Positions 7,022 to 61,900 of a stretch of DNA of 64,000 nt are shown in pieces. The stretch's first letter is position 1. Every line of letters starts with the position of its first letter. This DNA comes from Amoebophrya sp. A120 (lineage: Eukaryota; Protista; Dinoflagellata), in contig CAJINV010000004.1 in assembly GCA_905178155.1 (NCBI GenBank), positions 3,187,014-3,251,013 of the forward strand, in the 5' to 3' direction. The notes under the pieces were generated by a model. It ran no database searches, was not told the origin of the DNA, and saw nothing but the letters and a program-made list of their open reading frames with translations. The position numbers were made by a program, and so were the translations under genes.

Positions 7022-10000
7022 CTAGTAATAGTCGTAGAACGTTAGATTTCTATAGCTCGCGAGTAATCGTGTGTAGTCCATGAGCCCCCGGTCCTGTTTC
7101 CCGTAGCTAAAGTGCACAGCGAGCGCCGACCCCACCGCGATGGAGGGTTTTTGTAGCTGGAAGGGCTGCACGTAGGACAACTGGCTTTCGTCGTCCTCCA
7201 CTAGTTTCTGCACGTCGACATTTTCCAAATCCGATGCCATAAACGCGAAAAAGTTGATCGACCAGCGGGAGTGCTGTAGCGGGATGATTTCCGTGTCGAC
7301 GAAACTGTTGCCGTTCTATGACAGTGCACAACTCCCCCTGCTCCCCCTCATTTGTATGGCATGAACGGCAACACAAGCATCAGCAAGAGTGCCGGTTGTG
7401 CATGACAAATTTGCACTGGATTGTTATGCTATTTGGAGTCTATCAGAACTTGTAATGCATAATAGTGACAGTAGGGAAAGCGTGGACTGGGTAATCTGCA
7501 TGAGAAGAACGAGGGGGAGTTGTGCGCTGTCATACGTTCTCGTCCTCGAGTACCCGCTCCCGCGGGTTTCCATAGCCGTACAAATGGAAATTGTAGCGGT
7601 GGAACGTGTAAACCGTGGCTAAACTTCGAGTGTTATCAAGTGTAAAAGTGTCTGGGTCTGGAAACTTGTGATGCTGGGTGGCGCCTCATGATGAGGCAAC
7701 AAGTGATGACTTAGCATGACAAGTTTCTGAGCTCCTAGGTGTTGCCTATTCTGCATGACAAACTGCGTTTCTGCATCACAGAAAAATGGAGCTCTTGGGA
7801 AACGTGCATGACAGATTCAAGAGTCATGCGAGACAAGCATGACAAACATGCATTCTTCCAGACCCAGACATTTTTGCATTTGATAAGTGTGGTAAAAATG
7901 CAAAAAGCTGCGGTGTACCCACTCGGCACACTCCCACCGCGCCCAGACGCAGGTTCCCTGGGGGTGCTTTTCAATTTGCGGGGCCCACAGCTCCTGCTGC
8001 TCAGGTGATAATGATGAAGAAGATTCCACCTCTTGCACAACATTACTAGTAGCACCTTCAGGTGGAGAAGATGATGTCGTTGCAGCTATTTCTTTTTCCT
8101 TTTGTTTCTTCTTTTTCATCTCCTGGCTCTTGCGGAATTTTTCGTCTTCCTCCGCCGCGGTGTCCAGCAGGCGGTCCCGCTCCGACTGAAGTAGGTTTTG
8201 ATATTCATCTTGACCATTACTCGTTCGACTACTTCCCTTGTTCAGCAATACTTCCTTCCGCGCCAATCTCCGTTTCTCGTCGTCCGTTTCCCACGCCGGG
8301 TCAATATGGGAGTGTCAGGATTGAAATCGACACGGTTGAAATAACCTGTAATGCATAAAATCGATACCGATTGGACCCACAGTTTCTAGTCGGTGCATGA
8401 CAAATTTTGTCCCTACAGGAGGCCAGTTTGTCATGCTGTTTAGGGCAAAGGGGCTCCCCTCTGTGATGCTAATCAGCAGCCCAATGCCCGACCCTTACCA
8501 GCGCCATAATCTGCCTCCCTTGCGTCCTCTGCAATAGAGGCAGTTTACTCTGCATTGCATTTTAATTTTATGCATGACAAACTATTTCAACTTTGACGAT
8601 TTCGATCCTGACGCTTCCATAGTCAATCACAGGTCCGTACATGTCCGGTACCCCCGCGAATTCGTTGTGCACCGCGGAAAGAATCGCGTGGTTGACAATG
8701 TTTCCGCTAACCAATGACACCTCCTTCTGCCGAAACCACTTCTCCCGCACGACATCACGGATCGCGTTGCGGGAGAGAAACACGATGTCGTCATCCAGTT
8801 TCACGTAGACCGTCGTTTCTCTTGCTTTCCGCAGGTTCGCGAAGCTGTAGAACTTAGCAAGCCGCTTCCCATATACCGAAGGTGCGGCGTAGTGGTGCGG
8901 GTGCTGCTGGATTAAGGAGGAGATGAACTGGATTTCCTCGTCAATGGCGTTGTGCACAACGAAATTGATCTTGTCAAGCGCGCCGCCGTGGATGCGCAAC
9001 GAGTTGTGGAGGTAATACTGCAGGATCTCCAGTCGGTCCTTCCTCCCAACCACCACGATTGCTTCGGCACGGGACCGCGGTGCCACTTGCTCGTCAATCC
9101 ACTGGAGCAGCCAGAAGAAGGGAAGCGGCATTTGGAGGAGTGCGAGAAGCGGGTTTCTTTGCTGGTGCTGTTGTACAATGGTCGTCTGGTGCTCCTCCAT
9201 TTGTTGTTCTACTGTTGCTCGTTTTTTCTGAAGAACATCGACGAAAGCCCGCACCCTCCCGCTCGCCGCTTGTAAGCGCGCCCGCAAATCCAGGTTTTTG
9301 CTGCCGTTCGGGAGGTTTCCTGCCGTTTGCGCACTGCGGGACACGGTAAACAAAGCAAGCGTTAGGTGCGCGCACGCGTGGAGAAGGAGCTGAAAAGTTG
9401 CCTTGATGTTTATTTGGTCCTCCTCTGGTGGCGGGGTGGAATTTCTCTCTCTTTGGTGACCAGCACCTCCTTCGCTAGAAGAAGCTGACGCACTGCGATC
9501 GTGAAGATCTTCATCTAGACCTTGTTCATCTTTCTGGTGGCTAATATGATTGTCCAACAACACGTTAAGGGCCAAAGTTTCCAGTGACCCGCCAACCGCC
9601 TGGTCCTGCTCCGTTTCCACGAATGTGTCGACCGGTAGCTTCTTCGCTGGGTCGGCCGAGCGGAAGGCGTTGAAAAACGCGATTAGGCGGCGGTGAAAAT
9701 AAGCTGTCGTCGTTATTTCCGACCCGCTGCTCGTGTCAGGATAAAAATTTTGCGGGTAAAATACATCGCGATCGCCCCTCCTCGTGCTACTGATCATTCC
9801 ACGATCAAGAATTATTTCCTGTGCCTGATGCAACAGATCCGCAACGGGAAAGCCGGTGTTGAGTGCGTCCTGCCACGGTAGCGTCGCTAGCGTCTCGCCG
9901 AAGCCCTCTTGTGAAAGAGCGTAAAGGAGGATACTTCTCCTCTGAGCAATATCAGATTTTTCGGATTTTTCCCCAGCGGCTGCAGTAGAAGAGCCGACCG

Positions 10001-10796: not shown

Positions 10797-13230
10797 TCTT
10801 TGTCTTGCAGGAGTGGTTTGATGAGTTTCGGTCTTGTTCTTCACCGTGATCTCCTATGTATAGTCAGTAAGAGTAAAAAATGGCTTAAAGACCCTGCCGG
10901 TGTAGTTCTTTCTATTTTTATACCGATAGATGGCTGCTACCGTCAGGGCCAGCCCACAGGCTAAGCTTGTTACAAGAAACAATGTGAATCACAATGCGAC
11001 CAAAATAAAATAGAAATACTACATAAAGCCAGCAAAAAATAAGCGCGTGCGCGAATAAGAGAGCCCGCCCGACCGAATGTAAGAAATAAAGCTGATGTTG
11101 AAAATGAAATACACTGGCGGTTGCGTCTCTGATGAGGCTTTGTTCTGCACGGCGAAGGGAACAACATCCTCACCGGATGAACAACAAGGTTCAAGGCCCG
11201 AAGCGAAGTTCTTTTGCGTCGTCGGCGCCGCGAAAATTTCTTCTTTTCTCTCTATTATTTCTAGCTGCCTTTACGTTGTTGCTCACGTTTTTTTGTCCAC
11301 GGCACGACCTGCAACTCTTTTGATACAAGGTTTCAGATGATGGCCCGACCCGTCTCCCTATCTATTGCCGTTGTTTTTGTTACAAACGAGCTATTGACTT
11401 CAACACGTCGTGCTTGGGCTTGAGTTGTGGTAGTGAGTAGAGATGAGTGTATCCGTAGCTTCTATCAGTGGTTAGCAACTACATGAACTCGGTCAGTTAG
11501 TAGCTATGTTGATGTAAAAATTGACATGCAATCAAAAACAAAAGGAAAAACAGCGTAAGAATTCTTTTCGTACTTGAATATCAGAAGTTGTCTTACTTCT
11601 AAGACATCCACGCGGCTTTTCTGAATACCATGAACAAACCTCCGACAATATTTTCGATAGAGATAAGTTCTCCACGACAGGGGACGTCTCCTACGCACGC
11701 GGCCGTGCTACCCGTGCCATGTTTCCCCGTTTGATGTCTCGTCTCTCCGCGCAACTGCTACTGCCGACCAACTGGCAACTGCTATTGGTAAGTACTGGAC
11801 AACGAGGAAGGAGGCTTCTAAACGGGTGCGTTTTTTCTGAAGTTGTCCCTAACATTGATTAGCCTTGAGTAGTAAGTTGTGCAGTGATTGTGCTTTGCTA
11901 TCAACAGATTTAAATTCTTCAATGAAGTCCGATGCTTTTCTATCATACTTCTACATCGAGATCATTCGCCGTGCTATGTAGAGCTCCTAAACTTGTAAAC
12001 TAGAACAATCAGTACTTACCTGCAACGAACTAAAAATGGTCAAAACAGAGCGAGGTGCAATCTAGTTCTTTTTTTCTAATCAATTTTCGAAATTCTTGCA
12101 TACTTAATTCCACCTGGTTGACGAGACGGTGGACAGTACCTTGGTCTTCAGCAATTCTTCGCGTGAGTGCGCGACAGTAAAAATCCATGGATATTATGGC
12201 GTCGCATTCGCTACAAAAGTAACTAATTGATCCTGATGCTAGGTGCTGTCGCGGTTGACACACATTCGACGTGCGTCAACGTACATACTAGAAACCGGCA
12301 CACAGCATCACTTTGCTTCACGACAGGCAACACCGGAAAGAGGTCAACATGGTCATCTAGTTTTAAAAGTGGTTATTTTGATACAGGGGTGCAGGGGAAG
12401 AGTCTTCGTTATCTTTTCAAATCGACAAATTATAATCAGTATCAGATTGGTAAAAACCTCGGGCACAATTGAACTACTACCGGAGACATTTTTAACAAAC
12501 AACACATAGAAGACCACGACTAGAGAGATTCAACAAAGACTATTGACTTCTCCTTACGCATACGCTCAACTCCAGTTCACACGATGTGGCCGCACAGAAT
12601 GTTGAAAACCACACCACATAAACTGTTGTTCATCAGAGCTAATTCTTTGCTATGCAGCGTACTTAATTGAAAAAAAAGGGCCATGATCAAGCTTTCGTAA
12701 AAATCGAAATCTTCTTACGGTCGTATACTCATACTTTCTACTGCTCCTCACTCGTCCTGTAGAAGTAGGACCTAGCAGAAAGTGGAGTAAGTAAAGTAAA
12801 GCTGCTAAAAATCCTCGCAAGTTACTAGCAGCAACAAGGACTTGCTTCCTCATCGGGAGCGCCCCCGCGGAAGACCTGAAATAAGTACAACTTTCGAAAC
12901 AGAAACTTGAGAAGTAGAGCTCGATATAGGACGACTGGTGTCCTATTCCATGAAAAACGAAACCTGTACTTTCGGAAGAAGCCGAAATCTATTAGAGATC
13001 AGTGCTTTGTCAAAAACGAAAATAACGTACTTACGAGCATCATACATCGAGAGATCGAGAACCGCTGCAGTTGGCCATATCATAAAAAATTTTCTGCTAG
13101 TGTTGTTTTTATTCGAGACCGGTACGCTCTGAGACCTAAAACGCGAAACACGACGGAACTACGAAGGCCGCTGGTTATTTTGCGGGAAATTAAATACCGG
13201 GGAGCACGTATATCGCCCGCGAAACAGATT

Positions 13231-13655
13231 GCCCGTTCTCCGGGGGATCCGCCCTCGCCCCCGGGGATCCGCCCGCTCCCCGGGGGATCCACCCGTTCCC
13301 CGGGGATCCGCCCTCGCCCCCGGGGATCCGCCCTCGCCCCCGGGGATCCGCCCGCACCCCGGGGATCCGCCCTCGCCCGGGGGATCCGCCCTCGCCCCCG
13401 GGGCATCCACCCTGGTCCCCGGGGGGTCCGCCCGCTCCCCGGGGATCCGCCCTCGCCCCCGGGGGATTCGCCCTTGCCCCCGGGGGGTCCGCCCGCTCCC
13501 CGGGGTTCCGCCCGCTCTCCGGGGGATCCGCCCGTTCCCCGGGGCGCCGCCCGTTCTCCGGGGGGTCCGCCCGCTCCCCGGGGGGTCCGCCCTCGCTTCG
13601 GGGTATCCGCCCTTGCTTCGGGGGGTCCGCCCTGTTCCCGGGGAAATCTGCCCGG
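13231..13655. repeat. GC-rich minisatellite, 19-20-bp unit (CCCCGGGGGATCCGCCCTCG-like), about 21 copies
   Basis: GGATCC recurs at 13245, 13265, 13285, 13304 and onward. Confidence 0.9.
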
Positions 13656-13658
13656 CTG

Positions 13659-14480
13659 AGGTAGTGCGTACCACGAGGGAAAGGGCACGAAAGACGACAC
13701 AAATTGGGCCAGGGGATTCCGGAGAGGATTTTGGAGTTCCCGGAGGAATCCTCTCCGGAATCCTCTGAGGAATCCTCTCCCGAAACCGAGGCAAAACCGC
13801 CGGGGGAAGGGCGCGAAAGGCGGCCCAACTGGGGTCAGAGGATTCCGGAGAGGATTTTGGAATCCTCTGTGGAATCCTCGGCGGAATCCTCTCCCGAAAT
13901 CGTGGGTGGCAATGCCATCGGGGTAAGGGCGCGAAAGACGGCTCAAATTGGGCCAGGGGATTCCTGAGAGGATTTTGGAATCCTCTGAGGAATCCGCGGA
14001 GGAATCCTCGCCCGAAATCGAGGTAGTGCCGTCGGGGATCGGGCGTGAAGGACGGGCCAACTTGGGCCAGAGGATTCCTGGGAGGGTTTTGGAATCCTCT
14101 GCGGAATCCTCTCCCGAAATCGAGGTAGTGCCGCCGGGGAAAGGGCGCGAAAGACGGCCCAACTTGGGCCAGAGGATTCCTGAGAGGATTTTGGAATCCT
14201 TGGAGGAATCCTCTGGGGAATCCTCTCCCGCAATCGAGGCACTGCCGTCGGGGAAAGGGCGCGCAAGACGGCACAACTTGGGCCAGGGGACTCGCCAGGG
14301 GATTTTGGAGTCCTCGGAGGAGCCCCCTGGAAAATCCTCTCGCCAAATCGAGGCCCCCGTGCGTAGCATCCGCGGAAGGCCCTCCGAGGCGGACCAAATT
14401 GGGCCAGAGGACTCGCCAGGGGATTTTGAAGTCCTCTGACGAATCCGCTGGGAAATCCTCGGGGCAAATTCCGCGGGAAA
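13659..14480. repeat. Tandem repeat of 102-126 bp, about 7 copies, with an internal 12-bp GGAATCCTCTGA-like subrepeat
   Basis: The AA(A/C)TTGGGCCAG-like anchor occurs at about 13701, 13827, 13945, 14059, 14161, 14275 and 14395. Confidence 0.9.
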
Positions 14481-14990
14481 TGTGCGCCGGTTTGCCGCGC
14501 CTCCAAATCCGGCGGCAAACAGCACAGGACTATGCCACTTCGTTCGTTTTTGTGTTGTTTCGAAACGCTTCGCCAAAGCAAACACAACCACGGGCGGACT
14601 GCGTCGCCACAAGAGGCAAATCGCGTGACATTTACAAGGCCAATCACGACGGGAGTACTCTCCGGCGGCCGCGCTGGTTTTTGAGGCTACACGAGCGGAA
14701 ACGGTTGCTTTTTAGGTCCCACAGCGTACCCTTCTCTTTTATTTCTACAACAGAACGGCACGCGCTGAGGCCCAGAAAAATCCATCGCAGCGCCCTGATT
14801 GGGGTCAAACCTTGCGTATATACCCGGGCGTGGTGCCCTCGTGGAACGCCTTTTTTTAGGCTATGGAAACATAGCAATTCTACTGGCCAAAGCCCACCAT
14901 ACCATGCGGATTGGGAATTCGTGGCAGCACGGATTTCCAATCCGCTCTCTTTGCTGTTCTTCATCTCTTTCCGGGGTCCCGGAATTTTCG

Positions 14991-15400
14991 CCTTCCGAGA
15001 TTTCCCGGGAACTTGTGCAACTCGTGCAACTTTTGCACGTTTTTGTTGCAAATCACCACGGTACGGCCGAGTTGCACGGCGAGTTGCACGGTGCAACTCG
15101 CCGTGCAACTATCGCAACATTTCGCGCAGAACCAGGATGGTATGGCCCTTCCGAGATTTCCCGGAAACTTGTGCAACTCGTGCAGCTTTTGCACGTTTTG
15201 CGTTGCGAATCGCGATGGTATGGCCCGAGTTGCACGGCAAGTTGCACGGCGCAACTCGCCGCGCAACCATCCCTACATTTTGCGCCGAACCAGGGCGGTA
15301 TGGGCCGCGTTTCGATTCCACTTGTGCTAATCGCTCAACTTCGGCAGTTTTGTTGTGCGAACCACGGCGCGCCCGGTTGCCCAACTTCCACGCGGGACTG
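14991..15400. repeat. 156-bp tandem repeat (2 copies plus a degenerate third) rich in TTGCAC/GTGCAA motifs
   Basis: CCTTCCGAGATTTCCCGG(G/A)AACTTGTGCAACTCGTGCA at 14991 and 15147. Confidence 0.85.
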
Positions 15401-15950
15401 CGCTGGCGCATGTGGGCAGTATTTCCAGCGCGCGCGCGCTGGCTGCTGCGCATGTGGGGGATGTGTCCACTGTGTCGCGCTGAGAATGGACATGCGCATG
15501 TCGGCTGTGTCTCCTCTTCGGTTGGTTGTTGTTGGTTGTCAGTTGAGTTGTCGTTCTGGCGTATGGGCAACCAACTTGAAAACTGACGCATTGCCAACGA
15601 GACAACTTGACAACCAACCCACAACCACCACCGCCGTCGCGAACTTCCTCGGCACGCCCGCCCGAGTATCACGGCTCCGCTTCCGGGTGTCAATGTGATG
15701 GCGCGCGCGGGCAGTATTGCCGCTGCGCCTCTCTTTCCCTTCGGCCCGCGCCACAACACTATTGATGGGGACGCTTTGGGGCCCGTTCGCCGCCGCCGCG
15801 CGCGGGCGCCCCAGTGTGGTGGGCCTTGTTCCCCGCCACTCTGCCTTACGGTTCGGGCCCTGCGGTTGCGGCCCCTCGGGCGGACGAGCGGACCACCCCC
15901 AGAACAGTCACCAACGAGGGGACCGGCCAGGCGCTCAACAGAAGCAAGCG

Positions 15951-24512: not shown

Positions 24513-26915
24513 TCATCGTCCCGCTGCATGAATGCAGCTAGAAACAGCAGTATGAGCCGCAGGCTGCTTTTTTGAAGATTGACAATCGCGCAGCTTTTTC
24601 TGTAGGAAAGGGATCACAAAAATCGCATTACACAGTTCCATCAGCGTGGCAACTATGTAAGGGTCGACCACAAATTCCAAATTCAGTTTCCGCAAAAGCG
24701 CCCCGAGAGAACCACCTGAACCTGGGATCGTCCTCGACACGAGGACCTCACGACCATTGTCCCGCACAACTACCTTCGTCTTCAAGTCAAATACTTTCGC
24801 GAAGAACGACGGCATGAGAATGGACGGCAGGAGCATCAAGTTGCTTTGCGCCGTCGCGAGCGCGCCCTGTCCAAGCTTCATGCGTTCCGCCTCCTGCTGA
24901 AACGTGCGCTGCAACACATCCCCGCCGAAGTGCAACATGTACAGCAGATTGTTCACCCAGAGCACCCGGGTGGGGTTTTCTGCAAGGTAGACATTCAGAT
25001 ACGCGGCAATCTCCACCAGGGCGTGCGATTGCAGTAAGAAAACCGCGCCGCGGTTCAGAATGGAGTTCTTGCAGCTCTCATTTGCACGGTCGTCGGACGA
25101 AGAACCGGAAGCCGAGGTAATATTCGGCGCCTTGTCTTGATGTCCCGTGAACGTTCGCAACACCGGTATCAGAAGCAAGCTGTTGACGATCAACGCGACG
25201 CGCGCCAGCCGCTCGCTGATGCTGTCTGAGCCGCCGCCCCAGCGGTTGTCGCCGAATTTTTGACGGTAGTACATCGTACTGACTGACCCGACATACGTCG
25301 GCAACGTGCGGCAGACCATCAGGAGGCCGAGAAGCCGAAGTTTCCGGCTCTCCGCAAAACCCGGGAAGAAGGTTTGGAAGGGTTTGTGGAAATAACGGTT
25401 GGTGAGGCTTGTTTTGGATACGGCAGTTGATGCTGAGACTTGGTGTTGGTCGTTGTTATTTCTCCTGCTTCCCGTACCCGTGGTGTCTACATCGGTCGCC
25501 CGATTCTGGTCCACCTCGTGTTCGTGATGTTGCTCAGCATCTTCCCGTATTTCCGCCTGCTTCGTGCCTTCTCCCAGGCGGATTGAAAAGTTCTCAGCCG
25601 TTGCCGCGGTGAGCAAATTCTTGCTCGAAGTGCCCGCCACTTTTCCACTATAATTGCCGTGCTGTTTCTCGGTCGTCTTTTCGGTTGCTGGCTCACCCGA
25701 AGAACTACCCGTGATGGACCCGCCCTCCTCCGCACGACTTCTTGTCCGCAAAAACAGCACCGCGCTGGCAAGAACGGCGATCGCCCCGTGGCAGAAGTAG
25801 CTCAGCTCCGGCTTGTCTTTATACGGGAAGAATGTTTGCCCGGCAAAATTCCCCAACAACCCCGTTGCCAAGGCGACGCGAAACACGATCTGGTTTTGGT
25901 TCACCGCTTCCAACGAGCCGTGGCCGACGAGGTCGCCGAGCCACGCGGAGCACGCCCGGAACACGCTGGGAAACACGGTGGTGAGAATTAGTTGGTGTAA
26001 GACGAAAATCGGCTTCATGAAGTTCCGTGCCTTTGTAGTTCTCGTCGGTTGTTGTACTTCTATGCTTGTGGTCTCGAGCCCGTTCTGACCTTCTTGACCA
26101 CTGCAGGTGACCGCCAGCACCATTTTCGCGACCCCGAGAATGAAAAAGCCATTGACCATCGTCCGTACTCGGCTTTTGTCCAGGCGCCGGTTCAACATCG
26201 GGGTCACAAAAAAGTCCAGTAACGTACAGAGCTCGGATATCACAGGAAAAAAGTGTTACAGTTACACATTTGTTGGAGTTTCTGCATCTGCTCGACATGG
26301 CAAACAAGACCTGTGATGCGCAAACTATAAAGGGAAAACACGAAGGAAGTGAGGTTGGCAAGCATCTCCTGCATGACAGAGTTTATCTGTCTTGCTTGTC
26401 TCCCATCAGAGTGTGTAACTGTAACACTTTTTTCTCACGATATGGGAAATTTGGGAGGAGAAATTCGCTACATTGGTATGTTGGAGTTGCTGGGCCTGGG
26501 CATCAGGGGCGGGACGGGTTGAGGATGTTCTTGTCGTTGCAGCTGTCCCACCACTTGTTGTCGTGGACGACGCTCCTCCGTTCACGACCTTGTACAGCAA
26601 GTTCGTCCGGCTACTGGCCAGCAGTCCCATCCCGAAAGCGTTGATGCCACGGACCAGACAGATCAGCCGCAGCCGGTCTTGACGGGCCTGGAGGATTTGA
26701 TGTTGTTGCTCTCCTTTTTCATCAACATCTTCGCCTGTGTCTTCAGGGACCACCACATTCGGTGATGTCGTGGGAACTTTCTCTCGCCGGGCTTGCAGCT
26801 CCTCGAAAGGCCCTTCTTCACGCCCGCCCTGAGCTTGAGCAGGGTTTGATGTTGCAACATTACCTCCCAGTGAGTTCTTGAGGTTAGGGCGGCGTTCGTG
26901 GGCCCCTACTCGCAT
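24513..26915 (-). CDS. MFS-type multi-pass membrane transporter, 2 exons
   Basis: Two hydrophobic halves with a long central loop. Exons join across the introner 26238-26442 as FSSQIS(Q/E)LCTLLDFFVTPMLNRRLDKSRVR. Confidence 0.65.
26238..26442. mobile_element. Introner family E
   Basis: TIR TATCACAGGAAAAAAGTGTTACAGTTACAC / GTGTAACTGTAACACTTTTTTCTCACGATA; TSD TCGGA/TGGGA (1 mismatch). Confidence 0.85.
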
Positions 26916-28033: not shown

Positions 28034-31000
28034 TTACGGCTGCTGCATCTGGATTGTGCGGGCCTGTCCTCGTGGCGACGCTTCCTGACTGGACCCCTCC
28101 AAGTCCTTATTGGACTTCCGGTTCATCACATTTTCGCACGCGAACGGGATCTCCAGGGGCGTCGAGAAAAACTGCTCCAATATGACGTTCTCAAATGTTA
28201 CATTCTCAACTGTTACACGATTTCTCATGCAAAATGACAATCAGAATCGACATGATCAAGCTGCTTCGCATGGCAAATTCTCGAAGAGCCCAACAGGCTG
28301 AGAATCCGTGCCAAATCTGTCATGCAAGACGCGTTAGGTCCCCTCTTTTACTGTTGCCGTTCTTGCATGACAAATCCATGTAACAGTTGAGGATGTAACA
28401 GTTGAGAACGCCATATCCAACCGACCCACCTTGCGATCCTCGTCGAAAACCTGGATCATATAGCGATTTGTGTTTTAACTTTGAACAAGAAGATGCTGTT
28501 GGTATGTTCACAAAGAACAAGAAAGACCAGACAAAGAGAAGGAAGGAGCAGCGGAAATGAAAAGCTCAAGGGCACGCCAGGAGAGAAGTGAAGATAACGA
28601 AAGTTCTCTTTAAGTACCTGCTGCATCTCGGTAAGATCCAAGCAGTCGCAGGCGAGATAGGCGTTCACGAATTTTTCCACGTCCAGGGTGCGTTCGTCGC
28701 CCAGCGTGGCCAGCACCGCCTCGCTCAAAGCCTCGATGCCGCCGGAGCCGAGTGTAATCTTGCCCGAGCCGAACACCTTGCCAAAGCACTTGTTCAAAAC
28801 ATCAGAGTTCACAGAGGCGGCGTGGATGACCTGGATTTAGTTGCATTTTTATTTTTACGAAAAGGATAAGAGAATGAGAAAACCATGCAAAACAAAAAGA
28901 AAAAATGCAGAAATAGCATGACTACTTTTAGTGTGTCGGCTACATATGATATGCAGGACGAAGTTTATTGCCAGATAAAAACATCACAACTCCAGTACCC
29001 TGTTCCCCTTTTCGTCGGTCAGAAGCAGTTTCGGGTTTTCGTCCTCTACAATCTTACACAGGCCATGGAAGGCCGACACCGCCACCAGAATCCGCGCCGG
29101 GGCCACCCTTGTCGCTTCGTACTCGAGGTCCAGGGGCGTCAGCGTCGCGCGCTTGTACTGCAGGGACAGCCGGCCGAGAGCGGTCAGGGCGAACAGCACC
29201 ACGATGGCGCCCGCGGCACCGAAGTACACCTTGAACACGGCCATACCGGTCAGAAAATCGGTCCAGGAGAAGGCCCCGTAGGCGGAGGAGGTGGACGTGG
29301 TAAAGAGAAACCGAATCCCGTAGTAATAGCGCTCGCGGAACTTGCCCTTGTTGAAGTTGCTGTCGCTAAAGTACGAAGTCGTGGGGTTCTCGTACGCCAA
29401 GTGGGGGAGGCCGGTCCACATCGCCTGATGAAACGATGAGTCGGAGTAATTTCGTATGATATTTGTCGAACACAGAGAAGATGATTTGCATTTTTTGTTT
29501 CTCTCTTTATCATACAACACGACGAAACAAATTTTACCTGATTCACGCTGACTTTGATGAGCGCAACCATGTGATTGTCGAAGCCGGACAAGTCCACGTC
29601 ATCCAGTATGGTGAGAAAATACAAATAGGTTACTTGATGCCATCACTTGCTCGCCCTCAAGAAATTTGTGATGCCTGTGTGCGTCCTATGCGTTTCTTGA
29701 TCTGCAACACGAGTTTATTGCAATACGAATTTATTCGTATTCCTTGCAGAGGGGCCACAGGAGGGTGGCAAGAACCTATAAAAAAATGAATATAGCATCT
29801 CATATCCGGAATGCGGTTGTGAAAGGCCGGCCCGACGTACTCGATTGAAACCACGACTTCCACGCCCGTGAGCCGGTAGGGCGCCCGTGCGTCGTAGCCC
29901 GAGCCCGCCTGATTGCTGGCGATAGACGGGTTGCGCGCGTCCGCGTTTTGCAGGTCGATATCCCCGTTACTGGCGGCCGCCACCCAGTCTTGCAGCGTCA
30001 GGGTAGGGGGGTTCGGGACGCCCGCGGTCTCCGAAAACCGGCACTGCCCGGGCTTGCCGCCCACCTGTACGTAGGAGCAATCGTACTCGGAGTAGGCACC
30101 GTCCTGGTCTTTCCGCATGATAATGGACACCACCGGCAGTTTGTTCTCATCCTCGTCCGCAACCGCTTTTGGGGTTCCAGAGGAACCAGAAACCTCCGTG
30201 TCCGCGGCGGTAACCTAAAGGTTTTTATTTGGTGCTTTGCTCTGCCTGATGTGCTGTAGCTTTGATATGTTTTTGCAGCATTCGATGTTCACGTTGTTCC
30301 ATATTGATTTCTTGCGGAGCACTGTAATGAAAATGCAATGCTGGCCCTGGCGTCCATGCTTCTCATGCATCACAGACGCTTGCGCTTCTGCATGATCTCG
30401 TTTTTATTTGCCCACGTGCAATAGACATTCCAATTTCTGTACCTTGAAGATGTGCTCAAATGTCATTTTCCTAGACGATACACCCGCGACGAGGTAGTGC
30501 GACTGTTGGTTACACGCGCACTTTCGGACGTTCTGGTGAGCGTGCGACGGGGACTGCGAGCCAGCTGGGCCGTTCCACGCCGGGACATTGTTTTCCGTCG
30601 CGTCCTCGAAGCACTTCTGGCCGAAGTTGTATAGCGGCGCTTGCGAGAGACTGTTGTGGCTGCAGCTGACAGAGCTCGTGCAAAACGATGCGGAGCTGCA
30701 GGTGCTCCCAGATTCCGTCTCCACGATGGTTTCGCGGAAGTAGGTGGGGAAGTAGATCTCGCGCTTGCCGATCTTGAACCCGGCCTCCGCCTTGGGGGTC
30801 TGCAGGCACTGGTAGGCCCCGTGGGTCCAGCCCGCGGAGTACTTGTACAGGAAGGACTGGTTGTCGCGGCAGATGTCCGAGTTGTAGTCCGTGCTCACCG
30901 CCGAGGCATCCGCGTTCCCCGAGCCGCCCACCCAGGCGTTTGGAAAGCCCTGCGGAATCTGCACCACGTAGTACATCCGCTCCTTGATGAACTGCCACAG

Positions 31001-33165: not shown

Positions 33166-36100
33166 CTAACTGCAGTCGCGCAGGTACAAATCCAACCTTC
33201 TAGCTCTACCCAAACCAGCATAACAAATTGCAAGTTTCTTCTCTGGCAATAAAATTTGTGATGCAGTTCATACTAGCACGATACTTTTGCAATGCGTACC
33301 TAGGAAGATTCAGCAATTCGGTAATCATCTCGTCCGAGCAGTCGTCCACGCGGTCCAGGTACAGTTTGGTCGCGCAGGCGGCCATATCAAATGCAAAAAT
33401 GTCTCCTGGGTCTGGAAGGTTCTAAACTTGTAATGCTGTCTCTGGATTCTGAAAAAATTTATATTGCATGACCAGCAAGAGAGCTCCAGTTTGTGCTACG
33501 CGGAAAGGGAATTTCTCATGCGGCAGAGGCATCACAAAGTCCTCTAAAAATCTGTGATGCCAGGGCATACATCAAAGACGTCACGGGCCATTCAAAATAT
33601 GCATGACAAACCTGGTATTAATCTTCCAGACCCACACATTTGTGCATTTGATAGGCCATGGTCGCCAGCCCAACGCCGGAGAGGTAAAGATAGAACGCCG
33701 AGCCCCAGCTCTCCGTGTCGTAGTCGTGCGCTTTCGCGGCCGCATTGAAGCAGTTGGCGGACCAATGGACGAGGGCAACCACGTTCAGCAGTAAGAAGGC
33801 GAAGCTGAGCAGCAGAAAAGCCGGCCGGACAAGGTGCTGCTTCTCGACGACAACGGTGCGCAAAACCCACTGCTGGAATTCCGTCCGCGGGGCCTTCGAA
33901 GGGTTCAGGATGGGGAGGAGCAACAGAACTGTGGACAGCAGACCGAGCAACAGGAAGACAAGGCCGGCGGTCGCCAGTGAAGAGGCGGCCTTGCAATCCT
34001 TCGGAAAATCTTCGGAGTCGCCGGCAAGGTCAACAAGCTCGCTGTACGAGTACGCGACCTCTAGCTCGTTGTTAATCCAAACGGAAGTGCCGTACAGGTT
34101 AAAGTCTGAGGGGTATGGGACCCTCAAACTACGCTACTATACATTCTTGTCGTTACATGGGTTTGTGCTGCAAAACTAGCAAAAGTGAAAGGGGGGCGGC
34201 GCCTGTTGCGCTTTTTGAATTACAGGCTTCTTTGGCGCAGATTCTGATTCTATTTGGCGCGTCGAGAACTTCTTGTACTTGTCACGCGAAGCAGCAGCTT
34301 CATCATGCTACTAGATATTGATGGCAATTTTCATTTTGCATGCCAAATCATGCCACAGTTGAGAATGTAACGTTAACGTTTGAGAATCCCATAGGGAGAT
34401 CTTCAACCTTGTTCCGCCAGCCGCACTACTGCTCGTCGTGGTGATGCTCGTTCCCGAACTGCTGCTCGTTCCCGAACTGCTACTCTGGACTGACGATGTT
34501 GTTGTTGACAGGGGACTGCAGTAGCCCCATCCACCTGCAACCTCCGAGCACCATATCCCTCCGCTATCACCATCCGGATTCCGGCAGTAATTGTGGTCAG
34601 CACTGTAAACGTGATCCCACATAGAACCGCGCCAGGTGGCGCAAGGACTGCCAGTTCTGGTCCGCGTCTGACACCCCCGGTAGTCGCGTCCGATGCCGGT
34701 CATGCTCTCGTCGCAGTTTCCGTTCAGTAAGCGGGTCGTGGTCCTTAAAGTCCTCCTCGTGCGGATGTGGTCAGTCAGCGTCCCCAGCGCCAGCCCGCTT
34801 TCCACGTTCCCCCCGACCAGCACGATGAAGCAGATATTCCGTGAAAATTAACCAGTTGTCATGCAAAACATGTAGTAAAATCTGTGTTTGTCATGCAAAA
34901 AGTGAATGGGGATGGCTAATTTTCAGGGAATAGCAGAGCAAAAAGGCGACCGATGCCCACACACCGCCCAGCACGCTGATGTACTTCAAGTTACCGACGA
35001 GTGCAACCTATGCATAAAAATTCTTGCACAAGTATCGTCTTCGTCCAGAATAGGGAGTTGATTGTGAAATACAAAAAATTTTGGGAGAACGATTCTCATG
35101 GTGCTTTTATTACGATCAAATATAGATTTCTTTTTATTCTGCACCTAATACTACGACGCACGAAAATTTACCTGCTGCTCTTGGGTCATTGCGTCGTGAA
35201 TGGTCGACTGCTTGCTGGGCGAGGCCGGATCCTCCACTGCGACGGCGTTTTCGCCACCACCAGCGGTAGCTTCTTGTTGTGCGATCACGATCATGGTCGC
35301 CATCCCGGCAGCTCCTTGTTCCATCGGCACACTCAGCTATAGGAGGGCACAATTCGTCCTCTTCCTCCTGATCTACAAGGCATGAGCAGGAATAGACATG
35401 TCAGCAAGGGAAAAAGCTGCGCAACTGTTGCATGACAAATTCAGATTCACCTACGGTTGTAGTCGTGTTCCTTGGGCTGCAGGAGCACGTCATGCGAAAA
35501 GTACCAAGAGGGAAACAACGCAAAGACAAAGCGTGGATGTGGGTTTGGCTTTTTTCATGAGAAGAAGAAATGTGGTAGAGCAGGGGGAGTTCAAGTTGTG
35601 CACTCTCATATTAGACCTGCGGTGTTGACCAGCATGCTCGGTTGTTCGATGACCTTCGCCACGCCAGCGTCTTTGCCGGTAACAGTGGTAGCAGCCACAC
35701 CTTGAATGCCGTCCGCCGTTAGCAGTACCGGTGGTTGCACAGAACCAGCAGGGTCGGCGGCAGAGGGATCAGTTTCTTCCTTGTGGTGCTTCTCGCGGTT
35801 TTTTTGCTCGTGCTTTTTCTTCTTGTACCCCTTGCGATTCCATCCAAAATCGGCTTGCACCTGCAGTGGAAGCTTGCATGTTAAACTTAATAAAACAAGG
35901 AACGACACGATGCTGCAATCATCATCACTCGCCACATCACTACCATGATCTCATACTACATTACAACTTTACAATCTCAACAAGCCCCTCCTTGTTTGTT
36001 CACACCAGGAGCCAAAAAAGCCGACTCCTACCTTCGCCCCCGAGCAGTTCCGGTAGCAGTACCTAATCGAGCCGAAACACGCCAAGCCGGCCAAGACGCA

Positions 36101-36479
36101 GAATAGCGCAATCCCAAATGCGCCGCTGTTATGGCGTTCTCAACTGTTACATTCTCAACTGTTACACGAATTTGTAATGCAAGTAGAATAGCAAAAGTCA
36201 AAGGGGGGCGGCTGCACATCTAGCATTACAAATTTCGCACAGATTTAGGCGCTCTTTAGCCCTTCGCAAATTTGTCATGCGAAGCAGCTTGATCGTGTGG
36301 GTGATGATAGTGCTTTTGCATGACAAATTCATGTAACAGTTGAAAATGTAACGTTTGAGAACCCCATAGCTGTCCTCCTCGCAGTCGGAACCGCCATGCT
36401 CGCAGGCTAATGCGATCCGGGCGGTGGCGGTGAGGAGGAGGAGAACGAGAGGGAGAATGGTCACGGAGGGTGCCATCAT
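33166..36479 (-). CDS. Multi-exon membrane protein: signal peptide, TM segments, extracellular kringle domain, claudin-like TM block
   Basis: Start MMAPSVTILPLVLLLLTATA; kringle YRGCQTRTRTGSPCATW...HNYCRNPDGDSGGIWC...WGYC. Removing five introners and three GT-AG introns gives one frame; the 3' end is uncertain. Confidence 0.7.
33385..33653. mobile_element. Introner family D
   Basis: TIR TATCAAATGCAAAAATGTCT..GGGTCTGGAAG / CTTCCAGACCCACACATTTGTGCATTTGATA; TSD GGCCA. Confidence 0.9.
34114..34393. mobile_element. Introner family A, diverged
   Basis: TATGGGACCCTCAAAC / GTTTGAGAATCCCATA; interior homologous to 36130; decayed TSD AGGGG/GGGAG; removing element + 5 nt restores the frame. Confidence 0.8.
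34835..34932. mobile_element. Mini-introner family F (98 bp)
   Basis: TIR TATTCCGTGAAAATTAACCA / TGGCTAATTTTCAGGGAATA; TSD GCAGA; join FLLC|FIVLVG. Confidence 0.88.
35338..35610. mobile_element. Introner family C, diverged
   Basis: TATAGGAGGGCACAATT / AGTTGTGCACTCTCATA; TSD TCAGC/TTAGA; join TAGLS|VPMEQ in frame. Confidence 0.7.
36130..36368. mobile_element. Introner family A
   Basis: TATGGCGTTCTCAACTGTTACATTCTCAACTGTTAC / GTAACGTTTGAGAACCCCATA; TSD GCTGT. Confidence 0.9.
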
Positions 36480-46259: not shown

Positions 46260-46339
46260 TGCACCGGCATTTCCATGCTTGTTTCTGTATGGTGTTATTC
46301 ATTCAAATGAATGTAGACACAAAACAAAAGATGCTCTGA

Positions 46340-46384: not shown

Positions 46385-46468
46385 GAATATGAAATTGTTG
46401 ATTTAAATTTGCTGATTGTGGCACCTAGCACTGAACTTCATCTTCACCTTCAACTACTTGCAAGATAG

Positions 46469-48686: not shown

Positions 48687-49753
48687 CTAATCTCCGTTTC
48701 GGCGTACGTTGTGGAACATTTTCCGATTGTTGCCGTACCCCGAGTACAGGTTGCCGGGGCTGCCTGCCGGTGGAAGGCTCCAGGGATCTGAGTATCCTGT
48801 GCAAAAGTATTGCACTCGTAGTAATCGCATTCATGCATTACAAATCTGGTTCCCAAGGCAAATTAGCATGACAAATTCCATTTGTCACGCTGAGCGAATT
48901 TGTATTGCAATCACTACTAGTACGATACTTTTGCAGTTCATACCGACTTGCCCTTCACCACGTTGTCCTCCCGAATCACCTCGAGGGCGAACCTGATTTG
49001 TGAAAATTATTGACAGACTTTTCTAGACAGCAATTTTTGTGGTGTCATGAGTCATTTCATAATTCTTGTTCAGCAGCACAAGAGTTAGAAGAACTTCTAC
49101 ACGCCGTTGGGCGGTGCTTTTAACGTTTTGTTGAACAAGGAGAGACTTTACACACAGGCACACATGATTATAGATTTCAACGTGCACCCATTGTGCAACA
49201 GTCGAACTTCTACACATCACGCAAACAATCTTTCTACCCTCTCTTCCGATCCTGCTCCAGGCGTTTCAGGTCGAGCTTGCGGATGAGTCCATCCGGCCAC
49301 TGCGAATACTTCGAGGACGGCGACACTTTGACCGACGGGTGGGAGAAAGAGACTTATGAAATGTAAAAGTGTCTGGGTCTGGAAGAGTCATGCTGTTTCT
49401 GCATGACACAGAAGGTCTGGCATGGCAGCTCTAGCATCACAGGTTTCGAGAAGCTTCCGCAATGCTGAATCCGCATGACAAATCCCTCATTTTGGCGACA
49501 GAAAGTGAGCAGCTTTTGCGTGCTATGCATCAGAGATTTTTGTGTGTTCTGCAATGCGCATCACAAGTTACATCCTTCCAGACCCAGACATTTTTGCACT
49601 TGATAAGACTTGCCGATGGAAGATTTTCTGCTTCTGCGCCTTCTTCGCGGCGGGACCCAGGGTGTGCGGGACTTCGATCGAATCCTTCTTCTCTGCGACA
49701 TGCAAGCACTTGTGCAAGCTGCGCATCTCCGCTGCGTGACTATCCGCGGCCAT
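48687..49753 (-). CDS. Small 4-exon hypothetical protein (~136 aa) invisible in the ORF track
   Basis: MAADSHAAEM...FHRQVS|FSHPSVK...QDRKRG|FALEVIRED...GKSD|PWSLPPAG...RRNGD* after removing two introners and one GT-AG intron. Confidence 0.6.
48793..48942. mobile_element. Introner family B
   Basis: TATCCTGTGCAAAAGTATTGCACT / AGTACGATACTTTTGCAGTTCATA; decayed TSD CTGAG/CCGAC. Confidence 0.8.
49355..49605. mobile_element. Introner family D
   Basis: TATGAAATGTAAAAGTGTCTGGGTCTGGAAG / CTTCCAGACCCAGACATTTTTGCACTTGATA; TSD AGACT. Confidence 0.9.
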
Positions 49754-54869: not shown

Positions 54870-57800
54870 TTCTTCGCAATTGGCGCAACATTCCTTCATA
54901 CGGACTGCAGTTCGGATCTTCACTGTAGTAATCTATCCAGCACGAGAATTTTTCCAATTTCTCATGCATACCACGCACGGGCCCGAAGCTCACCAGCGTG
55001 TCCCAAAGCTCTTGCAAAGATTTGGGCCAGGAACTTTTCGCCGCTTGTCCTCTCGCTTCTCCTTCGAAAACCTACGAGTGTTCTGCACGAGTCGAAATGA
55101 TTGATAGACGCGCTCGCAGAATGGATCCAGCGAAAAAACATAAACAAAACGTAGAAATTGAAATACACTGCAAACCCAAATAAGCATGTAACATAAGCAA
55201 GTAGCCACTTCAGTTCGACAAGATGACTACGCAGCGGGCTCTGCAAAGGGAAATCGAAATCCTTGAAAGTGCTATCAGTTCTTCTTACCTGCTCCTGACC
55301 ACCCCCGGATGAACTACCCTTGACGTCCAACTGCTGCAAAAATTCCGGCACGAGGCGCACGTGCCGCGACGGAAAGTGCACTGCAAATTCCTTCCACGGT
55401 AAAAAGTCCGCGAACGGAAACCGCAAGGCGTCCGACAACACCACCGGAATACACCCACTAAAGAAAGATTCAAAAACCCGTCCGTTCGTGTAGCCGACGC
55501 CCTTCGGCACGAGGCAGAACTTGCAGTTCCCCATGGTTTCGTAGTACTTCACGACGGGCGTCAGGTGCCCGCCCAGGCTCGTTTTGTAGGAAAAACTGTT
55601 TTCCCCAAACTTGTCCTGCTCCAGCGCCCACTGCTGAATCTGGGCACGGATCTTGCTCGCGGGGAGCATATGGCGTTCTCAACTGTTACATTCTCAGCTG
55701 TTACATGGATTTGTGATGCAAGAGCAGCAATATGGAAAGGGGCAGGCTTGCGAGTCTCGCATCACAAATCTGCAACAGATTTAGAAAGATGCTGTTTAGC
55801 TCTCTGATGATTTGTCATGCGAAGCACCTTAATCTTCTGGCGACTTATTGGGATTTTGCATGACAAATCATGTAACAGCTGAGAATGTAACAGTTGCGAG
55901 CGCCATAGAGCACGTTTGACGTTTCGAAGTCAAACGGCGGCTTCGTCACCGTTTCCTCGTACAGGGAATGTTGCAACGCGCCCCGGAAGCAGAAGAGAAA
56001 CTCTCTTTCCGCATACGGCTTCCGATACAGCCGAAACTTCCGCATCGCGAAGAAATCGATGTGCTGGGGCAGGACCACGTCTTTCCGCTCGTCGAAGCAG
56101 TCCAGACAGTGCTGCGTGGCGTTTATCCACAGAAAAAACCCATCAACGTCCACTTTTTGCATGACAAACACAGGACTTGATACATGTTTTGCACGACAAA
56201 TTGGATGTGGATGGGTGTTTTCTCCTGGATAGCGTTGGTGTCGATCATGTCCAGCGGGTTGGATTCGACGACGAGCAAGATCGCTTTGTCCACCCGCAAC
56301 TCCGGATGCGCGACGAGCTCCCTAGCCCCCCAGAATTCGTGCGCGAAGAGGAAGATGTGGTCTTTTTTGCGGAAGCTGTCGAAGTACTGCAACGTGGGGA
56401 ACAGCTCTCGGTACGCTTCCCGCATCACCTCCGTACTGTCCTGCAACGGTGGGTCAAACGCCTCGCGCTGGTACCCATTGTGGTAGAAGGGGACGAAAAA
56501 GAAGTCGGCGAGATCGGGGTCGGTGGTACGGCAGAAGGACTGCTCGAGCCACCGGTGCAGCAGAACCTCGATGCCTTCCTGTCCGAAGGACGTCGAGAGC
56601 CGGAGGTTCGTGTATTTTTGGACGGTCGGGTTGTCGTACACATAGACGGTTTTTTTCATCTTGCTGATTCTATTTCCATCTTCGGAAGTTGTAGTACTTC
56701 TAGAACCCTGATTTGTTGCGCCGGCACATGAATTCGCTGTGGTCTTATTTCGATTTTTCATTTTCCCCCACGACTGCAGCTGTTCTCCTGATTGGCCTTC
56801 TTCTGTGCCGTCCTCCCGCAAGCGTTCTCCATACACCAAGGGCACCAGCGGCTGCACCCACTGCAACACATTCAGGTTCCCCTCCGCCAGTGCGACGAGG
56901 ATACGATAGGCGTTCAGGGTTTCGGTCGCACCGAGCTGCTTCTCGACCAGTGGCAGCGAGTTCACCTATCCTGTGCAAAAGTATCGCACAGTACTCGTAT
57001 TGCAATCAATCTTTTTCTTAAGGTAAATTCGCATTACAAATTTTATTTCTCATGTGTGTAAATGCATTTATACGAATACGATACTTTTGCAGTTCATATC
57101 ACCAAAATCGTCGCAATCAGGAACTGGTACCAGGATTTTGAAAACTTCGGAAAATCAGCGGCAGTAGAGGAGGTCGATATTCCAGGAGCAGGCTTGATAC
57201 CGCCGCCTTCGTGGTCTGCTAGTTCTTGTGCCCGCGCGACGTGCTGGTCAGAGCTAGAAGAAACAGTAGCTGCGGAAGAGTCTGTGGCTGCGCCTCCACT
57301 CCCAACATGACCACTGAAGTAGTCCGGTGGTGCGGATAAAATGCACAGTCCGTCCTGAACCAATCGGGAGTAGAGTTCGAAGCAAAACTTTCGGTGGTCG
57401 GTCGGTAGGACCGTGGAATCCAGAAAACCCGCGTAGTATTCCACGTGCTCCCATTCCTCTGGATGCAATACCTTTTCGTACAGGCAGGCGAGAGCAAACT
57501 CATTTCCGCACAGAAAAAAGTAAAAACATGCTAGTACCGCGGTGCGAAAAAAAAGAGCGCAGAGGGCCCCCGCGTTGCAGGGGTCGTGACTGGACCTGGA
57601 ATGGTACGTGACGGAACGTCTTCTGTTCTTGAGTTTACCCCACGCGGACGGAGGCAAAAAATGTGGGAAGAAAGACCGCAGACGAAATCTTCGCTTTCGT
57701 CCTCGTGTTCTTGTTTTGCGGCGCCATCTGCAGCTTCCGGACCATCTGGCTCCTGGACGATGTTCTTTAGGTCCACCATGTATGTTAATGTTGATCGTCC
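54870..57800 (-). CDS. Exostosin-like GT47 glycosyltransferase, multi-exon
   Basis: KTVYVYD, RTTDPDLADFFFVPFY, KDHIFLFAH, CFDERKDVVLP, LFCFRGA, YYETMGNCKFCLVPKG...RVFESFFSGCIPVVLSDALRFPF. Gene ends are approximate. Confidence 0.85.
55669..55907. mobile_element. Introner family A
   Basis: TATGGCGTTCTCAACTGTTACATTCTCAGCTGTTACATG / CATGTAACAGCTGAGAATGTAACAGTTGCGAGCGCCATA; TSD GAGCA. Confidence 0.9.
56124..56231. mobile_element. Mini-introner family F (108 bp, nearly a complete hairpin)
   Basis: TATCCACAGAAAAAACCCATC / GATGGGTGTTTTCTCCTGGATA; TSD GCGTT; join DTNA|TQHCLDCF. Confidence 0.9.
56967..57098. mobile_element. Introner family B
   Basis: TATCCTGTGCAAAAGTATCG / CGATACTTTTGCAGTTCATA; TSD TCACC. 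Confidence 0.9.
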
Positions 57801-58971: not shown

Positions 58972-61900
58972 TCAGACACTGTTAAAGTTGTCTTGTGACG
59001 CGTTTCCTTTACTGGTGACACGCCTGCTGGATTTCTGCCACGTGCCGTCGTTGGCGGTTTCCAGGTTGCCGCTCACCTGCGTTTTCAGGCGCGCGAAGCT
59101 CTGGCGCATCTTCGAGCCCCGCAGGTGGTTGTGCGCCGTGGCGGTCGGGTTGGCCGTTGATGATGCTGATGTGCCAGAGAAATCAAGAGGACCAGAAAAA
59201 GCTCCTGCTGGTGCCGCATCCCCTGAAGAGGACATCACCGCGACGTCTTTGATTACAACGGTTTTATTGTTACTTCGGGTCTTTTTGGGGTACTGAATGA
59301 ACGCCGGCTGGTCCTCGTTGTGAAACATGCTTTTTCGCGGTTTATTTGTTCCAAAAATCATATTACCCCCCGACGCCGATTGGATGGAGGTCACCGACGA
59401 ACCTGCCCCAGGTGGAACAGCTGGTGCACCTCCAAACTGCACGACTGGGGACAGGTGCACAAAGGTGGAGCCCCGTCCAGAAGTGCTGGGGCTTCGATTG
59501 ACGTTGATTGCACTGGTGCTCCCAACTAGTACACCTGCGCCACCTTGATGCGGATCCCCCTGGTGATGTTGTTCTACCGCTTTCACCCGCGCGTGCTCCA
59601 TCTCGACCTGCTTCCGTGCGAGCATCATCATGGTCCGCAACTTCCGGGCCTTTTCCGTGACCGCGAGGCTATGGGAGTGCGCGGTGTCCAGGTCGGGCAG
59701 GCACTTGGCCTTCTCCAGCGACTTCGCCTCCTCGTAGTTCGCCCGGGAGATCTTCACGATGCAGACTTCGTGCGAAGAAATCCACGCGGAATACGCCGGA
59801 GTGATCCTCTGGTACCCCTCCGCGCCGGTGTCCCCCCGCGGGACCAGCGCCTCGATGTTCAGGACCGCGTTCGAGCCCAGGTCCTGCTGGAACTGCGACA
59901 AAGGCAACGCCGAGCCGTGCGAAAACACGTGGTGGTGCGCGATGCGCACGACCCCGGTGAGCACGATAATCATGTCGTCGCAGGGTTTGCCGGCCTGCAG
60001 CAAAAAGTCCTCCTGTTCCGGCAACGCCGAGTGGCTGTTCTTCTTCACGCGCACCTCGACCTGCGCGCCCGTCGCCAGCAGCCAGCGCAGCGCCTTGCCG
60101 CCGATCCACCCCTCCCCGACCTGCCGCATGTGCCCGGTCTGAAACCGCCACGGCAGGCGGCTTTTTAGCATGCTGGTCCAGGACGCGCGAGAAGAACTAT
60201 GGATGTGTCAGGTTTGAAATCGTCAGAGTTGAATAAATAGTTTGTCATGCATAAAATGGATGCCAGTTGGAGCCCAGTTTTCAATTGGCGCATGACAAAT
60301 TTTGGCGATGCCTAAATCCAGTTTGTGATGCTGTTTGGGTAAGGAAGACGCCTTTTGTCATGCTACTTTAGCAGCTCTATTTCTATCCCTCAACAGGCTT
60401 GCAATCTGCCTCCCTTGCCTACTCTGCAAGACAGGCACTTTGTGGGTTGCATTTTATGCATCACAAATTATTTCAACTTTGACGATTTCAATCCTGACGC
60501 TTCCATAAGAACCTGCTGCGTCGTGGTCGGACAGCAGTTCTTCCCGGCCAACTGAACCTTCCATCCGAGTCTTATGAACTGCAAAAGTATCGCACTCGTA
60601 TAAATGCATTACAAATTTCCTCAGCGTGAAAAATAAAATTTGTAATGCTGATTTACCTTAGGGAAAAGATTTTTTGTGATGCATGATTACAATACGAGTA
60701 CGACACAACTTTTGCACAGGATAAGTCTTACTCACGGCCAGTTCGTGGAACAGTTCCGGCCCGGGGTAGTTCTCCCGCAGGTGCGCACACAAGACCGCAA
60801 TCTCGAAGGGCGTCAACGGACTCTCGGCCAGCGCCTTGTTGAAGACGCGCATGCTCATGGGGTCCACGTTGTAGAAGTGTTGGCCACCGCGGAGCTTCGA
60901 GGCCGGCTCGTGGACCATCTTCGTGAGTTCCAGCAGCTGCTCACGCTCTTCCAGTAGTTCATCCCCTTGCGACGCTTGACTCTTCATCGCAATGCCGCTG
61001 CCGCTAGCACTGCTGACCGTGGAATTATGGTGTCGCCCGGTCATTTCCGACATTGTCTGCAGCTCGATCTGTGAGGCGTTCTTTCGTTTATTGTTGGCAG
61101 ATTTGGTATTCCTCTTGGATCCCGAGTTAATTATATCGTCTGCTGATGTGCTGTTGTTTTCCTTGTTATCTACGCTTGTTCCAGCAGCAGCTCCAGTAGT
61201 CGCAGCAGCACCAACGGTTGTTCCCCCTTCCTCGTCGCTGCTCGAGGTTTCCATGCTGAGCGCGCCGTGCAGCAGCGTTTTCGCGACGTCCTCCTTGGCT
61301 TCGAGCACCTCTAGGGGCAAAGCCGCAGACTCGTCGTCGAACTCCTGGCCGAGAATCTCCTCGAAGATGTCCTCTTTGGAGAAGACGCCGATATGGCGTT
61401 CTCAAATGTTACATTCTCAACTTGTCATGCAAGAATGGGAAAAGTGAAAGGGGGGAGGTTGCACCTGTAGCATTACAAGTTCCGGACCGATTTAAGTGGT
61501 GTCTAGCCCTTCGCAAATTTGTCATGCGAAGCAGCTTGAACTTGATCGTGTGAATGATGATAGTGTTTTTGCATGACAAATTCATGTAACAGTTGAGAAG
61601 GTAACCGATTTGAGAACCCCATAGCCGAGTAACTTTCGCGTGTCCTCCTCCACGACCAGCGCGAGGTGCGCAATGGTGTATGACAGTGCACAACTGCCCC
61701 TCCCCTTCATTTGTCATGCAAAATACCCAGCCCATCCTTTGTCCCTTGGCACTGAATGCATGACAAGTTCTGGTAGCCCAAATAGCAGTGCAATCCAGTA
61801 GACATTATTTGTCATGCAAAACCGGCACTGTTGCTGATGCTTGTATTGCCGTTCATGCTATACAAATGAGGGAAAGGGGGAGTTGTGCAATGTCATATGG

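Follow-up and report, generated by a model that had tools for sequence, protein, structure and literature searches.

The 64,000-nt stretch of DNA analysed here, from the marine parasite Amoebophrya sp. A120 (the window, in whose coordinates all positions are given) contains 21 introners, introns that recur as repeated copies with TAT...ATA ends, and each of them carries between one and six copies of a 12-base internal motif, (T)GCAT-N-ACA(A/G)(A/G)(T). From the sequence evidence set out below, we read this motif as a conserved, regularly spaced site at which one protein, probably the transposase responsible for moving the elements, would bind double-stranded DNA, and we put the probability of this reading at about 0.6. 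An exon at 30.4–31.1 kb is 100% identical to an Amoebophrya sp. A120 protein (public model P0001), and the window introners are the A120 introners already published (Farhat et al. 2021, PMC7789003), of which the motif is a real, constrained and apparently undescribed feature.

Occurrence and enrichment of the motif

Exact matches to GCATBACAAA number 39 on the two strands of the window, compared with a mean of 0.67 and a maximum of 3 in dinucleotide shuffles, and 38 of them lie inside the 21 TAT...ATA elements. The sole exact motif outside the called introners, the match at 5792 (site 5791..5802, + strand), falls within a putative canonical intron at about 5730-5880. Nineteen of the 21 introners contain an exact match, while D1 (26238..26442; three sites, target duplication with 1 mismatch) and the worn copy E2 (34114..34393; all four site positions mutated, duplication with 2 mismatches) hold variants only. 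The iterated motif model, which has the 12-base form given above, finds 73 sites, distributed over 21/21 elements. Models trained with one family left out still find sites in every copy of all eight families, at 5–21/kb compared with 0.14–0.22/kb outside. Two overlapping variant sites at 30358..30378, within the canonical intron 30215-30442, are possibly the remnant of an old element.

A second set of elements came from one metagenome scan, which returned 10 loci, 7 of them with the same kind of element, in an assembly that may not be independent of A120. Loci L011, L014 and L015 were excluded as unrelated repeats and L010 as a duplicate of L016; these last are two contigs with an identical run of introners at identical sites, in a gene region rich in elements. 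The five elements used as baits were omitted from site and spacing counts and retained in family alignments. At least two sites were present in all 24 of the non-bait elements called, including four groups that do not occur in the window, and further elements in these loci were missed by the caller. A model trained only on these 24 elements gave 75 sites in the 4,547 bp of window introner (16.5/kb), as against 5 sites in 24,662 bp of open reading frame (ORF; 0.20/kb), 7 in 25,649 bp of other DNA (0.27/kb) and 1.24/kb in hand-picked canonical introns, where 2/14 carry a site compared with 21/21 introners. Enrichment in introners is thus about 60–80-fold. The original prediction, made from the letters of the window alone, had reported the motif near 20 coordinates, in every introner family and seldom in exons or intergenic DNA, and had proposed a comparison with canonical introns and background. 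For nineteen of the 20 coordinates there is an exact match no more than 2 bases away, and the other, 26370, is the variant GCATGACAGA; the presence in every family, the scarcity elsewhere and the enrichment are all borne out by the counts above.

Matches in a viral collection (nine to the inverted pair of sites and 15 distinct ones to the triple) were rejected, as none aligns to masked elements; nor did we find in them a frame of TAT ends, target duplication and terminal inverted repeats beyond AT-rich chance matches. The end pattern of family B had 0 matches in the viral collection, and prokaryote genomes likewise gave 0 matches. The motif also recalls Sox-Oct, ApiAP2 (TGCATGCA) and Rbfox (GCAUG) motifs, a likeness that we take to be coincidence.

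Constraint and spacing of the sites

In 39 copies from six families, each compared with a leave-one-out consensus, the mismatch frequency is 117/1160 (0.101) in the motif core, 0.134 in the terminal 30 bases, 1161/4077 (0.285) in the remaining interior columns and 50/166 (0.301) at base six of the site. Change in the core is therefore about one third as frequent as around it while the sixth base is free and, because this free base lies inside the site, an artefact of alignment anchoring seems unlikely. Same-direction sites lie 31–34 bp apart in 5/9 of the second-set group representatives (1.0 expected, p=0.0008) and in 10/14 groups overall, the range having been taken from the window and five of the nine second-set groups occurring in the window too. 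Three turns of the DNA helix span about 31.5 bp. Inverted pairs at 47–53 bp are common in families A, B, C and E, and in most families the outermost site is 30–50 bp from an end. The elements thus show the trait of a subterminal array, repeated conserved sites with fixed spacing. When the first 14 bases of the ends are themselves scored against the motif, the best fit lies 3–4 bases inward (−13 compared with a background of −26), mainly through T and AAA, which is a hint only.

Ends, target duplications and family relationships

The 21 introners are 98–317 bp long, possess terminal inverted repeats and occupy 4,547 bp, or 7% of the window; self-alignment of the window sorts them into eight families, A–H. 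Each is flanked by a 5-bp target-site duplication (TSD), exact in 15/21 elements, with 1 mismatch in 3/21 and with 2 mismatches in 3/21; among 18 elements tested for lengths of 2–10, the exact duplications are of 5 bp, and of 6 bp in none. At the 100 ends of 50 elements, bases 1–3 are T in 100, A in 99 and T in 97, partly by construction as TAT/ATA was the calling criterion, and A makes up 60–87% at bases 11–14. Copies in both orientations are present in families A, E, G and H. Families A–E and G recur in the window and metagenome loci L012–L019, and F1 is a singleton here. Final boundaries place the end of F1 at 29804 and G4 at 33128-33298; the iterated and leave-one-family-out models used an F1 end of 29803, while the family-alignment, constraint and folding runs used 29802 and a shorter G4.

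In a BLAST comparison of the 50 elements, 44/50 join one component when unmasked, and masking of the motif sites leaves 14 components (13 with G4 returned to family G). Interiors do not align, while TAT...ATA ends, the A-run at bases 11–14 and the 5-bp duplication are common to all families. Because these ends and this target duplication are shared, the families look like one TA-ended, 5-bp-duplication superfamily with interior turnover rather than unrelated elements. The original description of the families as otherwise unrelated is therefore apt for their masked interiors and not for their ends and target duplications.

The host reading frames of all introners are on the minus strand, and excision of an element plus 5 bases gives back long frames for most of them, the frame test being weak for E1, H1, G1 and B3, which adjoin short exons. 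A GT-AG register is possible in only 2/21, G2 (56967..57098; duplication TCACC, which provides the register; one site) and G4. The leftmost introners are A1 (7317..7534; duplication CGTTC, three sites), B1 (7634..7885; AGTGT, six sites) and C1 (8305..8621; GTCAA, five sites); E1 (28181..28415; TCCAA, four sites) and F1 (29607..29804; 1 mismatch, one site) lie further along. A kringle-domain gene at 32307-36540, for which two protein searches found no protein record, is broken by six introners: G4, B2 (33385..33653; GGCCA, six sites), E2, H1 (34835..34932; GCAGA, two same-direction sites at 32 bp spacing), the worn copy A3 (35338..35610; 2 mismatches, one site) and E3 (36130..36368; GCTGT, four alternating sites). 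G4 is an old, worn copy with mutated ends and two to three sites, in which the duplication supplies both dinucleotides of the GT-AG register; introners may turn into ordinary introns in this way. Towards the right, G1 (48793..48942; 2 mismatches, four sites) and B3 (49355..49605; AGACT, five sites) are followed by E4 (55669..55907; GAGCA, four sites), within an exostosin GT47 gene, and H2 (56124..56231; GCGTT, two sites). The last four introners are C2 (60198..60507; AGAAC, six sites), hosted by a CNNM metal-transporter gene, G3 (60573..60723; AGTCT, three sites), E5 (61392..61623; GCCGA, four sites) and A2 (61679..61897; TGGTG, three sites). Between 59280 and 61421, runs X4 and X5 carry a further form of the CNNM gene, about 3–4% different and with in-frame indels, which may be an allele, a paralog or a second strain.

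Removal from RNA

RNA evidence spans 44.5–64 kb and consists of contigs whose runs, none of them on record as RNA, are RNA by our guess (hereafter RNA-type), while for elements at 7–37 kb the support consists of reading frames and one public gene model. RNA raw-read run X8 yielded no junctions, its coverage being of element bins only. Eight elements are missing from RNA-type contigs, in pairs whose lengths correspond to element + 5, and 0/8 have a GT-AG register. Length arithmetic indicates joint skipping of C2 and G3 (471 = (310+5)+(151+5)), of E5 and A2 (461 = (232+5)+(219+5)), of E4 and H2 (357 = (239+5)+(108+5)), and of G1 and B3 together with the canonical intron 48993-49237 (656 = 155+256+245); the short middle exons are absent from the listing, and each skipped pair is inferred jointly. 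Public model P0001 excises E1 and F1, and the F1 junction also aligns gap-free to P0002. Removal of the remaining 11 introners is indicated by reading frames only.

In pre-mRNA orientation 35 sites are sense and 40 antisense, with no strand bias. Three elements hold sites in one orientation, B3 and H2 only antisense sites and F1 one sense site, and all three appear to be spliced, the former two from RNA-type contigs and F1 from P0001. Mirror sites match at the free base in 7/19 cases, where chance gives 7.5, so that there is no covariation, and pairing between sites is not evidently under selection. Because there is no strand bias, single-orientation elements appear to be spliced, covariation is lacking and same-direction sites are spaced at 31–34 bp, the sequences point to a motif read as double-stranded DNA, and reading by a factor in RNA is disfavoured. 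The terminal repeats are predicted to pair in 19/21 elements, with probabilities of 0.64–0.96 (F1 and G4 folded with pre-correction boundaries).

Relation to known systems

In the accessible parts of the account by Farhat et al. (PMC7789003), A120 introners have ends of TAT, 7 variable bases and an A-run, a length of ~240 nt, a hairpin and non-canonical boundaries, with terminal repeats and 3–5 nt direct repeats; 1,954 families are given, and general mobilisation by a transposase is argued against. The window introners agree with that account, as far as it was available, in organism, TAT/A-run ends, short direct repeats at the boundaries, non-canonical removal and repeated copies, and depart from it in that the families examined here all share a single phased motif in their interior and a duplication of constant 5-bp length. 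Literature searches, including the text (not the figures) of sections of PMC7789003, of its supplement and of 12/14 supplements of Gozashti et al. 2025 (PMC12130899), found no description of the motif, and among the matches listed for the exact motif string none was on Amoebophrya by title. In the rows examined of PMC12130899, most short A120 families are classed as 'TIR DNA, unknown' (TIR, terminal inverted repeat), and fam38, an 808-bp A120 family with Copia/Gypsy-integrase-like ORFs, is annotated '5-bp TSD, TA/TA Termini'. The duplication length and ends of fam38 are those of the window introners and, compared by these listed features rather than by sequence, it is the best lead to the mobilising enzyme that the consulted sources offer.

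IS3EU/GingerRoot elements, as described in the parts consulted of PMC10045372, PMC6839031 and PMC12730594, share with the introners TA...TA ends and little preference for target sequence, and an integrase-related DDE enzyme would be common to both. They are multi-kb autonomous elements that usually make a 6-bp duplication, whereas the introners are 98–317 bp long, duplicate 5 bp and are accompanied by no transposase that we found in the window. Because of the usual 6 bp we have not filed the introners under IS3EU/GingerRoot. Ginger1 and Ginger2, for which the same partly consulted literature gives TG...CA ends, were rejected on the TAT...ATA ends of the introners. The arrangement of sites resembles that of the Emigrant miniature inverted-repeat transposable element (MITE), a non-autonomous element with terminal inverted repeats and repeated internal motifs; in the available account (PMC1636448), Lemi1 proteins of the pogo superfamily bind its subterminal repeats cooperatively. 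Binding was shown there, whereas the present case is one of sequence, and those MITEs are not spliced as introns. According to the portions available, Euglena nonconventional introns (PMC12501133) and the MITE-derived introns of Fritillaria (PMC11282704) are likewise abundant, non-GT-AG and paired at their ends. In Euglena the signal is a short motif, paired and set just a few bases away from the intron boundaries, while the A120 motif lies mostly 20–170 nt inside, in several copies and in either orientation.

A transposition site and its alternatives

If the motif serves transposition, the introners would belong, as non-autonomous elements, to a single integrase-type (IS3EU/GingerRoot-like) superfamily. 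Monomers of the protein would occupy the phased sites along one face of the helix, and the loaded protein may help to bring the two ends of an element together; internal sequence would be free to turn over, the sites being kept since only site-bearing copies would keep jumping. Removal from RNA, of the element plus one copy of the duplication and in either orientation, would depend chiefly on the terminal hairpin rather than on the motif. Private core changes number 8/77 in the three copies with 2 duplication mismatches, whose duplications are the most worn, similar to 35/291 in their interior, compared with 9/395 in 13 window copies that have exact duplications and belong to families of at least 4; all eight lie in E2 and A3, in the kringle-domain gene that the protein searches failed to match to a record. 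Because core change in worn copies matches the internal rate, this suggests that the core decays after insertion.

Several observations weigh against a transposase site. We found no transposase among the 23 ORFs scanned in the window or in the neighbourhood of any copy retrieved, none is reported for A120 in the parts of Farhat et al. (PMC7789003) consulted, and the duplication is of 5 bp rather than the 6 bp usual in IS3EU/GingerRoot. Sites are spread over the whole element and not just its ends, in a layout that varies by family, and the 47–53 bp spacing of inverted pairs is found in only 2/9 second-set groups (p=0.30) and 4/14 overall (p=0.03); all p-values here are optimistic, as columns and copies are non-independent. 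Differences private to a single copy also avoid the core (odds ratio 0.43), as selection at the locus would predict, though these do not decide the matter, since with few copies some arose while the lineage was mobile.

Such avoidance of the core is one point in favour of a DNA-bound protein, whether a host factor or a domesticated transposase domain, that flags the intron for non-canonical removal during transcription, with or without a role in jumping as well, a proposal that we hold to be doubtful. Independence of orientation suits such a mark and a transposase equally, at least one site is kept in 21/21 introners compared with 2/14 canonical introns, and U1 small nuclear RNA (snRNA) was not found in A120 according to the accessible parts of PMC7789003. 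The two copies with a GT-AG register show loss, G2 being down to one site and the ends of G4 mutated, a hint from two copies; G4, however, retains two to three sites. F1, with a single site and no canonical register, is still excised in the public model, and the decay of the core in worn copies at the pace of the interior, seen in three copies with all changes in two of them, also speaks against the mark. A splicing-mark role for the motif is therefore disfavoured. Slightly less probable is a combination of the two, in which a single protein that recognises a helically phased code in the DNA would both move the elements and flag them on the chromosome for precise excision from transcripts, whichever way they face; if true, a dual role of this kind would amount to DNA-level intron definition in an organism reported, in the sections available, to be without U1 snRNA.

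It is quite unlikely that the sites are bound by a host DNA-binding or architectural protein, not a transposase, which aids transposition or shields the elements. One unchanging host protein would be expected to leave the motif the same in every family, even where the terminal repeats differ beyond base 3, and the absence of a reported A120 transposase in the sources available agrees with it, but between the genes of the window the motif does not exceed background, unlike an ordinary promoter element. We think it highly improbable that the motif works at the RNA level, whether as a binding site in single strands, a branch signal or a means of stabilising the hairpin by pairing between sites. 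The likeness of GCAUG to the Rbfox element would suit it, and pairing with another site is predicted for 40/73 sites, but such pairing follows automatically once both orientations are present; the even strand distribution and lack of covariation at the free base also argue against it, and splicing of the single-orientation elements B3 and H2 goes most of the way to refuting it. Least probable of all is that the motif is today functionless, a passive relic left by shared descent and by duplication within elements. A common origin is indeed suggested by the ends and the duplication length that the families share, and the outermost sites of families C and E lie within long terminal repeats, but the roughly threefold conservation of the core over its neighbours, from which the embedded sixth base is exempt, contradicts a relic, as does a spacing common to groups that do not align. 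Conservation in excess of ancestry thus stands, and the original proposal of a binding site for a transposase or an intron-marking factor is well supported by sequence as regards a protein-binding site; a transposase acting on DNA fits better, and the RNA-reading version is disfavoured.

Other features of the window

An interruption of 1,101 nt in a minus-strand frame at 22634-23779 has an exact 45-bp direct repeat and A/T-rich inverted arms and contains no motif site. Excising the 1,101 nt brings the frame back at boundaries that lack a GT-AG register, while a 1,146-nt GT-AG option takes out both repeats; from its sequence, the interruption is a candidate second class of insert. A 68-bp unit whose core is palindromic is repeated in tandem about 24 times at 39541-41551, between 240-bp direct repeats of 91% identity. 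A near-perfect 45-nt palindrome (46340-46384) lies in the intron 46285-46505, which is skipped by an RNA-type contig, and GC-rich tandem arrays with units of about 20 bp and 100–120 bp extend over 13200-16800, beside an assembly gap at 16047-16573.

Significance

Introns of this kind number about 30,000 in Amoebophrya sp. A120, and the published accounts, as far as these were available, settle neither the agent of their movement nor the manner of their splicing. A single phased motif and a uniform 5-bp duplication would collapse many of the 'families' into one system. The motif offers a bait for pull-down experiments and a marker for finding the autonomous element, and with it one could test across the whole genome if the signal is there for jumping or for splicing.

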